DNA of 64,000 nt, taken from NCBI RefSeq assembly GCF_003334785.1, contig NZ_QOWV01000001.1; one strand, 5' to 3'. The notes beneath the pieces were generated by a model, which was not told the origin of the DNA, ran no database searches, and was given only the letters and a program-made list of their open reading frames with translations. Source of the stretch: Escherichia coli (GTDB lineage: Bacteria; Pseudomonadota; Gammaproteobacteria; Enterobacterales; Enterobacteriaceae). Of this stretch, positions 22,582-28,418 are shown piece by piece. How positions within the stretch are numbered: the first letter of the stretch is position 1; the number at the start of each line of letters is the position of its first letter. A program made the translations under genes and the position numbers.

Positions 22582-23772
22582 TTACAGCACTGCCACAATC
22601 GCTTCGCACAGCGGAGCCATGTTATCTGGTGTCATCCCGGCCACATTTACGCGACCAGAAGCAACCGCATATACGCCAAACTCTTCGCGCAGACGCAGCA
22701 CTTGTTCTTTTGTCAGGCCACTGAAGGAGAACATGCCGTTCTGTTTGATGATAAAGCTGAAGTCGCGGTTTGCGCCTTTTTCCTGCAGCGTATTGACGAA
22801 CAACTGACGCATACGCTGAATACGCTGGCGCATATCAGTCAGCTCTTGTTCCCAAATCGCACGTAACGCATCGTTGCTCAGGATGGTGGCAACAACAGAA
22901 GCGCCGTGTGCTGGTGGGTTAGAGTAGTTAGCGCGAATCGCCGCTTTCATTTGGCTGAATGCGCGATCAACGGTTTCACTGTCGGCAGCAACCAGAGTAC
23001 AAGCGCCAACACGCTCGTTGTACAGGCCAAAGTTTTTAGAGTAGGAACTGGCAACAATCAGCTCTTTATGCATAGCCGCGAAAGCGCGCAGTCCTTCAGC
23101 ATCTTCTTCCAGACCACGGGCAAAACCCTGGTAAGCGAAGTCAAACAGCGGTAACCAGCCTTTCTCAACGGAGAGTTGTGCCAGTGTTTGCCATTGTTCC
23201 AGCGTAGGGTCGATACCGGTTGGGTTATGGCAGCAGCCATGGAACAGCACTACGTCGCCAGCCTGAGCTTCATTCAGGCTGTTAATCAGTGCATCGAAGT
23301 CAAGAGTGTGATTTTCCGCATCATAATAAGCGTATTCACGAACTTCCAGACCTGCAGAGTTAAAGACGCTCTTATGGTTCGGCCAGCTTGGGTTGCTCAC
23401 CCACACACGCTTAACGCTGGTATTTTTTGCCAGGAAATCGGCAGCCACGCGTAGTGCGCCAGTGCCCCCCGGAGTCTGTGCCGTGCGAGCACGTTTGTCA
23501 TTGATCAGGGCGCTACCTTTACCAAACAGCAGTTCCTGAGTGCAGCGACCAAATTCAGGGATGCCGTCAATGCCGAGGTAATTTTTGGTGGTTTCATTTT
23601 CGAGCAGATACTGTTCAGCCTTTTTCACGCTGGTCAGTACCGGGGTTTTGCCCGTCTCATCTTTATAGACACCAATCCCGAGGTTAATTTTGCCGGGACG
23701 TTCATCGGCACGAAACAGATCGGCCAGGCCCAGAATCGGGTCGGCAGGAGCGGCGGTAATGTTCTCAAACAT
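22582..23772 (-). CDS. aspC: aspartate aminotransferase
   Basis: 396-aa ORF; PLP-lysine motif [14 protein letters not shown]. Confidence 0.97.
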
Positions 23773-23899
23773 GACGAGGTTCCATTATGGTTACAGAAGG
23801 GAAGTCCGCTATCAGGGTAACGGGAGATTTACAAAATTCCAACTATTACTGATGAAAACGCAGGCTGTTTTTGCAAGACGTGAGATTGCTCTGGAAGGT

Positions 23900-23932
23900 A
23901 TAAAAAAAACAGGACCAAAGTCCTGTTTTTTC
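23900..23932. terminator. bidirectional-type terminator downstream of ompF (hairpin flanked by A8 and T6)
   Basis: aaaaaaaacaggaccaaagtcctgttttttc, read directly. Confidence 0.75.
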
Positions 23933-23956
23933 GGCATTTAACAAAGAGGTGTGCTA

Positions 23957-25045
23957 TTAGAACTGGTAAACGATACCCACAGCAACGGTGTCGTCTGAAC
24001 CTACGCCCAGTTTGTTGTCAGAATCGATCTGGTTGATGATGTAGTCAACATAGGTGGACATGTTTTTGTTGAAGTAGTAGGTTGCGCCCACTTCAAAGTA
24101 GTTCACCAGATCAACATCACCGATACCTTCTACGTCTTTCGCTTTAGATTTGGTGTAAGCGATGGACGGACGCAGACCGAAATCGAACTGGTATTGCGCA
24201 ACTAACAGAACGTCTTGCGTTTTGTTGGCGAAGCCGCTGGTGTTTGTAAATTTATTAGTGATCGGCGTAGCGTTACGGGTTTCACCGTAGTTCGCTGCCA
24301 GGTAGATGTTGTTCGCGTCGTACTTCAGACCAGTAGCCCACTGTTCAGCTTTTTTACCGTTGCCAAGAGGTTGAGCTTCTTGCAGGTTGGTACGGTCAGC
24401 TGCACCATAAGCACCAACGATACCAAAGCCTTCGTATTCGTAGCTGATAGAACCGCCAACACCGTCGCCGTTAGAACGGCGTGCAGTGTCACGCTCGTTT
24501 TTACCCAGGTACTGAACAGCGAAGTTCAGGCCATCAACCAGACCAAAGAAGTTGGAGTTACGATAGGTAGCAACGCCGCCAACACGACCAACGAAGAAGT
24601 CATCGCTGTATGCAGTATCACCACCAAATTCTGGCAGCATATCGGTGTAACCCAGTGCATCATAAACCACACCGTAGTTACGGCCGTAATCGAAAGAACC
24701 AACGTCAGCGTATTTAAGACCCGCGAATGCCAGACGCGTTTTGTTACCAGTTTGAGCGTCAGCGCCTTCAGAGTTGTTACCCTGGAAGTTATATTCCCAC
24801 TGACCATAACCGGTCAGATCGGAATTGATTTGAGTTTCCCCTTTAAAACCAAGACGGGCATAGGTCATGTCGCCATTGCCACCGTAACTGTTTTCACCGT
24901 TACCCTTGGAAAAATAATGCAGACCAACAGCTTTACCGTACAGATCTACTTTGTTGCCATCTTTGTTATAGATTTCTGCAGCGTTTGCAGTACCTGCTAC
25001 TAACAGAGCAGGGACGATCACTGCCAGAATATTGCGCTTCATCAT
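23957..25045 (-). CDS. ompF: outer membrane porin F
   Basis: 362-aa ORF, signal peptide [23 protein letters not shown]-terminal ...GIVYQF; matches remembered OmpF. Confidence 0.97.
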
Positions 25046-25155
25046 TATTTATTACCCTCATGGTTTTTTTATGACACCTGCCACTGCCGTCAATAAGTTC
25101 TGTCAATAAAAATTTACGGAACTATTGATGAGAGTTTGGTGTCTTTATGTGTCTG
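25046..25155 (-). promoter_or_regulatory. ompF 5' UTR, including the MicF sRNA pairing region around the SD and start codon
   Basis: Position relative to ompF ATG; UTR length (about 110 nt) is from literature, not measurable from sequence. Confidence 0.5.
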
Positions 25156-25169
25156 CAGGCATCTTTCCA

Positions 25170-25260
25170 TTCAAACTAACGTTTCGCTACCGTGAAAGTG
25201 CTACAAAGATAAAGATTTGGTTTCAAAAAGAAAAAATATGTAACCAAAAGTAAAATTTAA
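25170..25260 (-). promoter_or_regulatory. ompF promoter with tandem OmpR-binding sites (F1-F3)
   Basis: Reverse strand reads TTTACTTTTGGTTACATATTTTTTCTTTTTGAAACCAAATCTTTATCTTTGTAGCAC..., the known GTTACA / GAAAC-rich OmpR boxes; exact box borders not resolved. Confidence 0.55.
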
Positions 25261-25602
25261 GGAACTTTGTGAACACCGTCATATTTCCATAGAGACGTGA
25301 TGATATTTACAGCAATTTTAATCTATTTATATGATTTCCTTATATTTAAATTAACTAAACGGAAATTTTGTTTCTGATGGAAACTTTATCGACCTGGCAC
25401 AAAATCTTCTTTCAGACATCCAGAATGCCAAAAAATAGTATGAAAATTGTGCTATTAGCTAAGAAAAAACTAATCCGCAATAAGAATGCGGATTAGTTTT
25501 TGCGCGTAAATGTTGCAATGTAATATTCCGTAACAGGATGATCGTTATGGCGGGGTTGCAAATAGATTGCTTGACTTAACAAACAGATAACTTGACAGAA
25601 AA

Positions 25603-25634
25603 GATAAAAAAAGAGCCAGCGGGCGCTGGCTCTT
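25603..25634 (-). terminator. rho-independent terminator of asnS
   Basis: Minus strand: hairpin agagccagc-gccc-gctggctct followed by tttttttatc. Confidence 0.75.
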
Positions 25635-25646
25635 GAAGACGCTAAA

Positions 25647-27047
25647 TTAGAAGCTGGCGTTACGCGGAGTACGTGGGAACGGAATCACATCACGTACGTT
25701 TTGCACGCCAGTTACGTAAGCAATCAGACGTTCAAAACCAAGACCGAAACCTGAATGCGGAACAGTACCGTAGCGACGCAGATCGCGATACCACCAGTAA
25801 TCTTCTTTATTCAGGCCCATTTCCAGCATACGCTCGTCCAGCACGTCCAGACGTTCTTCACGCTGGGAGCCACCAATGATCTCACCGATGCCCGGAGCCA
25901 GAACGTCCATAGCCGCAACGGTTTTACCGTCTTCGTTAAGGCGCATATAGAACGCTTTAATATCTTTCGGATAGTTTTTAACCACTACCGGTGCTTTAAA
26001 GTGTTCTTCCGCCAGATAACGCTCATGCTCAGAAGAGAGATCGACTCCCCAGTAAACCGGGTTTTCAAACTTCCTGCCGCAGTTTTCGAGAATGGTCACT
26101 GCGTCGGTATAATCCACCTGCGCAAAATCGGCTTCAATGAAGCGTTCCAGACGTGAAACGGCATCTTTATCTACGCGTTCAGCGAAGAATTTCATGTCGT
26201 CAGCGCGTTCTTCGAGAACCGCTTTGAAGACATATTTCAGCATGGCTTCAGCCAGACCCGCAATATCGTTCAGGTTAGCAAACGCCACTTCCGGCTCCAG
26301 CATCCAGAATTCCGCCAGGTGACGGCTGGTGTTGGAGTTTTCAGCACGGAAAGTCGGGCCGAAGGTATAAATTTTGGACAATGCGCAAGCGTAGGTTTCG
26401 CCGTTCAACTGGCCAGATACGGTCAGGAAAGACTCTTTACCAAAGAAGTCTTTGTCGAAATCCACTTTGCCCTGATCGTTACGCGGCAGGTTTTCCAGAT
26501 CCAGCGTAGAAACGCGGAACATTTCGCCTGCACCTTCGGTATCAGATGCGGTAATCAGTGGCGTTGAAACCCAGAAGAATCCCTGCTCGTTAAAGAAGCG
26601 ATGCAGCGCCTGCGCCAGCGTATGGCGAACGCGCGCGACGGCACCAATCAGGTTTGTGCGCGGACGCAGGTGAGCGACTTCACGCAGATACTCAATGCTG
26701 TGGCGTTTTGCCGCCATCGGGTAAGTGTCTGGATCTTCAACCCAACCAGCAACTTCAACCTTGCTGGCCTGAATTTCAAATTGTTGCCCCTGGCCCGGCG
26801 ACGCCACGACTTTACCCGTCACAATGACCGAGCAGCCGGTGGTCAGACGCAGGACGTCTTCATTGTAATTGGGCAGAGAATTATTGATGACAGCCTGTAC
26901 AGGATCAAAGCAGGAACCGTCATAAACGGCGAGGAAGGAGATGCCAGCTTTTGAATCTCGGCGGGTACGTACCCATCCGCGCACGGTGACTTCGCTGTCA
27001 ACGGCTACACGGCCCTGGAGTACGTCGGCTACAGGCACAACGCTCAT
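25647..27047 (-). CDS. asnS: asparaginyl-tRNA synthetase
   Basis: Class II aaRS; 466-aa product from ATG at 27047 ([13 protein letters not shown]...); the upstream in-frame extension in the ORF track is rejected. Confidence 0.95.
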
Positions 27048-27182
27048 AATATTCTCTCTGTTAATAGTCGGAAAAAATAAACACTTGTCCACCCGTAAAT
27101 GGGGGGATACCTATGTTACCTGGCATCTGCAATCAGACAAGCAGAATTCGCAAATGCAGCGAAAGATTTCGGAATTAAAGGT

Positions 27183-27207
27183 AAAAAAAGGGAGCCGATT
27201 AGCTCCC
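27183..27207 (-). terminator. rho-independent terminator of pncB
   Basis: Minus strand: hairpin gggagc-taatcg-gctccc followed by ttttttt. Confidence 0.6.
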
Positions 27208-27215
27208 TGATGATA

Positions 27216-28418
27216 TTAACTGGCTTTTTTAATATGCGGAAGGTCGAACGCTTTGCGCAGCGCCCGAACAAACGCTTTATCATGGCAGATAGTTTTGCCA
27301 GGGCTGTCAGAAAGTTTCGCCACCGGTTTACCGTTACACTCTACCAACTTAATGACAATATTCAGGGGTTTTACCTGGGGGATATCGCAGGTCAGGCGAG
27401 TCCCAATACCAAAACTTAATTGCACGCGGGAAGAGAAGTGGCGGTATAGCTCAACCGCTTTGCGTAAATCCAGATTGTCAGAGAAAACCAGCGTTTTACT
27501 CTGTGGATCAATTCCCAGCTTTTCATAATGTGCAATGGCTTTTTCACCCCATTCAACCGGGTCGCCAGAGTCATGACGCAGGCCCTGATACCGACTAGCG
27601 AACTCGACACCGAAATCACGCAGGAAAGCATCCATAGTGATGCAGTCGGTTAATGCAATGCCAAGTTGGTCGGGATACTCTTCCAGCCAGGCAGCAAGTG
27701 CAGCTCGCTGGCTGTTGGCTAGATCCGGGCTGATTTGCTGATGTGCCTGGAACCATTCGTGTGCCTGTGTTCCCATCGGCGTGAGGGAAAGCCGACGCGC
27801 CAGATCGTAGTTGCTGGTGCCCACAAACCAGGATTCCTGTTGCAGACGCTTAACGATGGTTTCTTGTACTTCGCGAGAAAAACGGCGACGGGTGCCAAAA
27901 TCCATCAGATGGAAGCGCGACATATCAAGACCGGCGGTTAACGCCGAGAAGTCGACTAATTTGCTTTCCAGCGTGTCGAGGGCTTGCGCAACGTCGGCCT
28001 GCGGTGAGCGATAGCGATGTACCATTTCACTGATAACCGCCAGCAAAGGAACTTCCCAGAGGATGACTTCACGCCACGGGCCGCTTAAACGAATATCCAG
28101 CTTGCCATTATCGTTGGACACGGTGACTTGTTCCGGGTTAAAGCGGAACTCGCGTAACCAGTTAAGATAGTCGGCCTTAAAGAAAGGCAGGGCAGAAAGC
28201 CACTGATATTCATCATCCTGCAGGCGCAGGTGCTGCATCGCCTGAACCTGTTCACGAATAGCATCGGCATAAATACCCAGCAGATCGTCACCTCGGCAAC
28301 GAAACTCCGCCGCGACATGCACATCGTAATAGTGATGAAACACGGCTTGCTGCATATGCAACTTATAAGCATCTGTATCCAGCAACGAGTGCAGAACAGG
28401 AGAAGCGAATTGTGTCAT
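27216..28418 (-). CDS. pncB: nicotinate phosphoribosyltransferase
   Basis: 400-aa product from ATG at 28418 ([24 protein letters not shown]...). Confidence 0.95.

Follow-up and report, generated by a model that had tools for sequence, protein, structure and literature searches.

The 601-bp spacer between asnS and ompF (positions 25046..25646) in the analyzed window, a stretch of 64,000 nucleotides from Escherichia coli, is almost certainly the cis-regulatory region and the 5' leader of the porin gene ompF. The region is a textbook one and already known; the proposed two-layer structure of the spacer and the CRP-like and −180 elements found across the order are minor additions. Osmoregulation of ompF and ompC is a textbook case of a two-component system acting together with an antisense RNA. 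The genes in this part of the window follow the order aspC-ompF-asnS-pncB, all on the minus strand, and the two that border the spacer are located as follows:

23957..25045, minus strand, ompF
25647..27047, minus strand, asnS

The spacer is non-coding and has a GC content of 34.1%, compared to 50.9% for the whole window, with a minimum of 0.275-0.28 at 25200-25500 in a 200-bp profile. Its preliminary description as an AT-rich non-coding region of about 600 bp upstream of ompF is borne out by these figures and by the confirmed identities of the flanking genes. It had been listed among the longest intergenic regions in the window; in a crude gene map of the window it is the longest gap and, in fact, the longest true spacer. 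Two other gaps of nearly the same length were considered, but one contains ihfB (1891..2175) and the other the start of an open reading frame that runs off the window end, so neither is a true spacer. The ihfB gene, ∼23 kb from the spacer, codes for the β subunit of IHF, which is among the regulators of ompF. No tRNA was detected in the spacer, no Rfam family was found in the region 23500-27500 at E ≤ 1, and there is no RefSeq annotation inside the spacer in E. coli K-12, in strain 720632, or in any of 25 sampled genomes. In a genomic SELEX study of the RpoE holoenzyme, a peak was listed in the asnS-ompF spacer (PMC5493296).

In a sense-strand alignment with the corresponding region of K-12 MG1655 (NC_000913.3, 986983-987584), 601 of the 602 positions are the same, the sole difference being a run of seven instead of eight A residues in the leader (25064-25070). 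The two strains otherwise agree throughout the locus, in OmpR sites F1 to F4 as well as in the −10 hexamer, the leader, and the MicF site, so the experimentally mapped K-12 sites apply here as well. This identity should be regarded as stronger evidence than any motif scan, and both the earlier gene identifications and the regulatory reading of the spacer prove to be correct. The K-12 identity, the site positions, the complementarity to MicF, and the conservation pattern are all observed directly in the sequences compared here. The segment 24900-25800 is 100% identical to that of E. coli strain 720632, and the 901-bp query found matches in 5,425 of the 5,426 complete E. coli genomes; the remaining genome had no match at all. 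In one of the matching genomes (NZ_OZ121091.1, hit H12), the match is limited to the asnS-side 38% of the query, so in that genome the part with the ompF promoter has been lost or replaced. For comparison with more distant relatives, a scan of species-representative genomes for AsnS provided 25 further loci from the order Enterobacterales that carry a porin gene downstream of asnS.

The transcription start of ompF, which we take to be position 25154 on the minus strand (110 nucleotides before the ATG in K-12), serves here as the reference point for all negative and positive numbering. The core promoter and the proximal OmpR boxes are as follows:

25166..25161, minus strand, −10 hexamer AAAGAT, upstream of the presumed start at 25154
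25254..25235 (−100..−81), minus strand, OmpR box F1, assigned from K-12 identity and a C1-like match
25234..25215 (−80..−61), minus strand, OmpR box F2, assigned from K-12 identity and a C1-like match
25212..25193 (−58..−39), minus strand, OmpR box F3, assigned from K-12 identity and the known site scheme

With the start at 25154, the F1 box falls exactly at −100..−81. As an independent test, the spacer was scanned with the C1 20-mer of the ompC promoter. The best matches were F1 (14 of 20 positions), F2 (13 of 20, exactly 20 bp downstream), and a segment at −372..−353 (12 of 20), all three on the sense strand. A single C1 score is weak in AT-rich DNA, with 22% of shuffled sequences reaching 14. 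More generally, OmpR, IHF, Lrp, Fur, and Fis matches taken singly are no better than those in shuffled AT-rich sequence, and consensus scans of the spacer for Lrp, Fur, Fis, CpxR, and IHF produced nothing above chance. The site assignments therefore rest on the K-12 identity and the literature and not on the scan; a literature search for the exact site sequences found nothing. Tandem OmpR boxes had been expected near the promoter within 25170-25260, which is where F1 to F3 (25254..25193) are found, in agreement with the published ompF site scheme (PMC1489923, PMC3050692). The ompC region is similar in having tandem 20-bp OmpR boxes just upstream of the −35 region, and its C1 box has the above 14 and 13 positions in common with F1 and F2, respectively. 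However, a distal site for repression is absent from ompC, where the effect of OmpR-P is activation only (PMC3050692).

Unlike ompC, ompF has an additional OmpR site in the distal part of the spacer:

25534..25507 (−380..−353), minus strand, distal OmpR site F4, GTTACGGAAT ATTACATTGC AACATTTA, assigned from K-12 identity, the C1 match, and spacing

The exact limits of the F4 footprint are presumed here. With the start set at 25154, the sequence GTTACGGAATATTACATTGC occupies −380..−361 (25534..25515), and the half-sites GTTAC/ATTAC are found at −380..−353, in the region of the third-best C1 match of the spacer on the sense strand. The F4 sequence is the same as in K-12, and its TGTTAC segment is unchanged in 12 members of the Enterobacteriaceae. 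F4 has been described as a weak site 260 bp upstream of F1-F2-F3 (PMC3050692), and the position −380..−353 fits this distance. The preliminary description was right in predicting a distal OmpR site but placed it at 25450-25520, a range that the actual site merely touches at its edge, so that the guess was 15 to 60 bp too close to the promoter. In the published model, F1 to F3 are activating, whereas F4 and a DNA loop are responsible for repression at high osmolarity (PMC3050692, PMC3050693, PMC1489923, PMC543474). In E. coli GF60, an IS200C element (L087, 1796-2500) is inserted into the A-run beside the palindrome described below (25464-25469), so that F4 and the ompF promoter are split apart. 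The spacer has also been reported to acquire IS1 insertions and a point mutation in evolved laboratory lines under antibiotic selection (PMC5818497).

At the other end of the spacer, the ompF leader contains the following elements:

25046..25154, minus strand, ompF 5' leader, 109 nucleotides here and 110 in K-12
25059..25055, minus strand, Shine-Dalgarno sequence GAGGG
25062..25035 (mRNA +93..+120), minus strand, MicF pairing site, covering the Shine-Dalgarno sequence and the AUG

A stem-loop is predicted within the leader. The duplex of nucleotides 1-33 of the annotated K-12 MicF with the ompF mRNA has a calculated ΔG of −27.1 kcal/mol, compared to −14.0 ± 2.7 kcal/mol for shuffled MicF (z = −4.8); this 5' segment was used in place of full-length MicF, for which the duplex fold was uninformative. 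The ompF 5' untranslated region had been named as the MicF target, and the complementarity is indeed real, extending over the last 17 nucleotides of the leader and the first codons. The leader A-run at 25064-25070 directly precedes the MicF duplex and the Shine-Dalgarno sequence. It consists of seven A residues in this strain, APEC O2:K1, NRZ96052a, and E. albertii and of eight in K-12, O55:H7, and PI24. The length of the run is recurrently polymorphic, and the one additional A by which K-12 differs from the strain analyzed here is part of this variation among E. coli lineages.

Two stem-loop-forming elements are present in the asnS-proximal half of the spacer:

25634..25601, minus strand, asnS intrinsic terminator, with a stem-loop at 25634..25611 followed by a T-run
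25465..25501, no strand assigned, perfect palindrome with 15-bp arms and the core CTAATCCGCA-N7-TGCGGATTAG, flanked by A5/T5 runs

The asnS terminator was recognized by both the terminator scan and folding (ΔG of −17.8 kcal/mol, z = −4.1); its stem, GGCCAGC/GCTGGCC, is retained in 11 of the 12 Enterobacteriaceae, and its loop is variable. The palindrome, located between F4 and the proximal sites, is terminator-like on both strands in this strain (ΔG of −21.2 kcal/mol, z = −6.5). Here and in K-12, it combines a perfect stem of 10 to 15 bp with a minus-strand U-run ∼110 bp past the first terminator, and it might accordingly be viewed as a back-up to that terminator, keeping transcription that reads through from asnS out of the ompF control region. 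That role appears rather improbable, given that uncompensated changes in the left arm are seen in APEC O2:K1, O55:H7, PI24, E. albertii, and other genera, whereas the right arm together with the loop (ATTCTTATTGCGGATTAG) is the only part to stay constant in both E. coli and E. albertii. A conserved RNA hairpin or terminator maintained by selection was rejected as an interpretation of the palindrome because the pairing is lost in other lineages. The uncompensated changes in the left arm and the invariance of the right arm point to a constraint on the DNA sequence and not on RNA pairing, which suggests that the right arm and the loop are a candidate DNA-level site. The palindrome does not represent a repeated element either: it is found in a single copy in the window, and the distal 300 bp that contain it have no second copy in E. 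coli genomes.

The same hairpin could also be assigned to a small plus-strand gene in divergent orientation, hidden in the distal half of the spacer, with a promoter-like site at 25306-25335, an open reading frame of 39 to 42 amino acids (25368/25377..25496), and the palindrome as its terminator. The promoter-like site matches 10 of the 12 consensus positions, and the reading frame ends within the hairpin, which is followed by a T-run on the plus strand. However, shuffled sequences contain 2.5 ± 1.5 promoter-like sites, more than the single one in the spacer, the hairpin pairing is not kept among relatives, and there is neither an Rfam match nor any annotation at this position in K-12, strain 720632, or the sample of 25 genomes. 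In 2 of the 5 E. coli lineages, the reading frame is interrupted by an in-frame stop; non-synonymous changes in it are numerous, and in E. albertii it is scrambled. It was rejected as a gene because of these stop codons, and the existence of a divergent gene in the spacer is highly improbable.

The part of the spacer between F1 and the palindrome contains several additional elements:

25265..25286, minus strand, CRP-like site region, with the core TATGA-N6-TCACA at 25283..25268 (−129..−114)
25325..25346 (−192..−171), minus strand, conserved block AATATAAGGAAATCATATAAAT, mean identity of 0.88 in 12 Enterobacteriaceae
25331..25319, minus strand, IHF-like 13-mer, matching 7 to 8 of the 9 IHF consensus positions
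25383..25392, minus strand, H-NS-like TCGATAAAGT, matching 9 of the 10 positions of the motif TCGATAAATT

The CRP-like core matches 9 of the 10 defined positions of TGTGA-N6-TCACA, a score reached by 2.3% of shuffled sequences. It is located inside the conserved block −133..−103, and the TCACAAAGTTCC part of the site is invariant or nearly so across 24 members of the Enterobacterales. In Yersinia pestis, ompF is reported to be directly stimulated by CRP, and a CRP consensus-like site has been predicted at −131..−109 of this gene (PMC3050693); the E. coli CRP-like site is its positional equivalent. In the model proposed in the same work, CRP control of the E. coli porins is indirect, via ompR-envZ (PMC3050693). 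Searches of the open-access literature turned up no report that ompF of E. coli has a direct CRP site.

The conserved block at −192..−171 is probably the region of the upstream IHF site. The best matches to the IHF consensus (8 of 9 positions) are at −177..−165 and −68..−56, next to which the IHF footprints are presumably located, although 81% of shuffled sequences score equally well. This block is also found in the families with short asnS-porin spacers; its location there, directly after the asnS stop codon and ahead of the terminator, would make it part of the transcribed asnS 3' end. The function of this block is independent of F4. The motif matched by the H-NS-like sequence is taken here to be the H-NS high-affinity motif; since 11% of shuffled sequences reach the same score, this match is only a lead. 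A direct repeat, AGTTCC(G/T)TAAATTTT, is found at 25109-25123 (+33) and 25252-25266 (−112), with both copies inside conserved blocks. The pair of GTTCCnTAA sequences, 142 to 144 bp apart, is present in most Enterobacteriaceae and in several other families, and both copies of the direct repeat match 8 of the 10 positions of the H-NS motif.

The length of the spacer differs between the two groups of Enterobacterales, being 544 to 618 bp in 11 of the 12 Enterobacteriaceae genomes and 245 to 324 bp in the members of Erwiniaceae, Pectobacteriaceae, Yersiniaceae, and Morganellaceae. The twelfth of the Enterobacteriaceae, Superficieibacter electus, has a spacer of 786 bp (L025, 4402-5187), ∼180 bp longer than in the others. 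Among the 12 Enterobacteriaceae, conserved blocks are found at −192..−171, −133..−103, −90..−69 (F1b-F2a), −53..−27 (F3b and the −35 region), and −17..+106. The last of these, which comprises the −10 hexamer and the whole leader, has a mean identity of 92%. The distal half retains an identity of 0.4 to 0.7 per 20 bp, its invariant parts being the F4 segment TGTTAC and the short islands TTGCGGATTAG, ATAGCAC, and GGCAnTCnGGA. In Pseudocitrobacter, Phytobacter, Leclercia, Kluyvera, and other genera (L006-L013, ∼4400-6200), the porin itself is 52 to 57% identical to OmpF, compared to >90% identity of the promoter and leader. The ompF control region is thus far more conserved than the porin protein.

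The order of the elements is also different in the two groups. In the families with short spacers, the asnS stop codon is followed by the −180 block, the terminator, the CRP-like site, and F1 to F3. In the Enterobacteriaceae, it is followed by the terminator, ∼250 bp that include F4, the −180 block, ∼40 bp, the CRP-like site, and F1 to F3. The terminator beside asnS in the Enterobacteriaceae has the same GGCCAGC/GCTGGCC stem as the one in the short-spacer families, and the ∼40 bp between the −180 block and the CRP-like site contain a decayed GCTGnTTT remnant. Among the compared families, the distal ∼290 bp, including F4, are found only in the Enterobacteriaceae. Based on these element orders, parsimony suggests that the distal ∼290 bp are an Enterobacteriaceae-specific insertion, which would fit the published absence of F4 and of repression at high osmolarity in Yersinia (PMC3050692). 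The Y. pestis ompF upstream region resembles that of E. coli in having F1 to F3, a CRP-type site at about −120, and a homologous leader; in contrast to E. coli, its asnS terminator is not beside asnS but separates the −180 block from the CRP site. No second copy of the distal ∼300 bp was found in E. coli genomes. The possibility that the distal half is a duplicate of the proximal half was rejected because their local alignment was no better than those of shuffled sequences.

Taken together, these comparisons are tentatively interpreted as two layers, a reading that is plausible but falls somewhat short of being probable. The first layer would be a proximal module of ∼200 bp, common to the whole order and consisting of the −180 block, the CRP-type site at −121, F1 to F3, the promoter, and the leader. 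The second would be the ∼290-bp F4 segment, inserted in the ancestor of the Enterobacteriaceae between the asnS stop codon and the −180 block; this insertion would have placed a terminator copy beside asnS and created the OmpR repression loop. If true, this reading would also imply that CRP acts on E. coli ompF through a direct site, as opposed to the indirect model (PMC3050693).

The AT-rich composition of the spacer raises the question of DNA shape. Long A and T tracts at 25200-25460 had been taken as a sign of intrinsic curvature. The tracts are present, with 15 runs of at least 4 bases in the spacer, which is the level set by composition (16.4 ± 2.6 in shuffled sequences). Curvature was calculated with our own implementation of a wedge model, using parameters after Bolshoy and Trifonov. 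The mean predicted curvature of the spacer is 23 to 24 degrees per 31 bp, compared to 16 for the window, with peaks (97th to 99th percentile) near −86, −150..−170, −270..−290, and −430..−450. The mean of 24.2 exceeds the 19.8 ± 2.3 of spacer dinucleotide shuffles, 3% of which reach it, but neither the maximum curvature nor the 10- to 11-bp periodicity is above such shuffles. The suggestion of intrinsic curvature thus holds for the modestly elevated mean and not for the maximum, the run count, or the periodicity, and curvature is plausible but for the most part a consequence of base composition.

These observations bear on an alternative view of the spacer, in which most of its length has no site-specific function and the distal ∼290 bp are a lineage-specific AT-rich insertion, coated with H-NS, in which only F4 matters. 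In Erwiniaceae, Pectobacteriaceae, Yersiniaceae, and Morganellaceae, the ompF spacer is 245 to 324 bp long and lacks the distal segment; conservation in that segment is low; curvature, A/T-run count, and periodicity are all close to the level expected from composition; and IS200 and IS1 insertions in the spacer are tolerated. Nevertheless, the spacer length is held within 544 to 618 bp in 11 of the 12 Enterobacteriaceae genera, three islands besides F4 are conserved in the distal half, and the published looping model requires this spacing (PMC3050692). A largely functionless distal segment therefore seems unlikely, albeit less so than a back-up terminator at the palindrome.

With the spacer read as the ompF control region, the following sequence of events can be proposed, in which protein occupancy, looping, and the regulatory outcome are deduced from the literature. 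A weak promoter that depends on an activator would direct ompF transcription from about 25154 on the minus strand. At low osmolarity, OmpR-P would bind cooperatively to F1 to F3, the three tandem 20-bp boxes, and activate this promoter. At high levels of OmpR-P, the weak distal site F4 (25534-25507) would be occupied as well, and the ∼260 bp between F4 and F1-F3 are thought to form a loop that represses ompF. IHF, and probably also CRP and H-NS, would be bound in the AT-rich DNA between or beside the OmpR sites. The MicF antisense RNA would pair over the ribosome-binding site and the start codon (25062-25035), blocking translation, and the asnS terminator (25634-25601) would close the upstream gene.

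The practical value of the spacer analysis lies in its correct annotation. Its applied relevance stems from the spacer being a target of insertion sequences and point mutations under antibiotic selection (PMC5818497) and from its use as an intergenic SNP and source-tracking marker for wastewater-adapted and host-specific E. coli (PMC9189398). As a small evolutionary footnote, the comparison of Enterobacterales suggests how a repression loop may have joined an older activator-dependent promoter.
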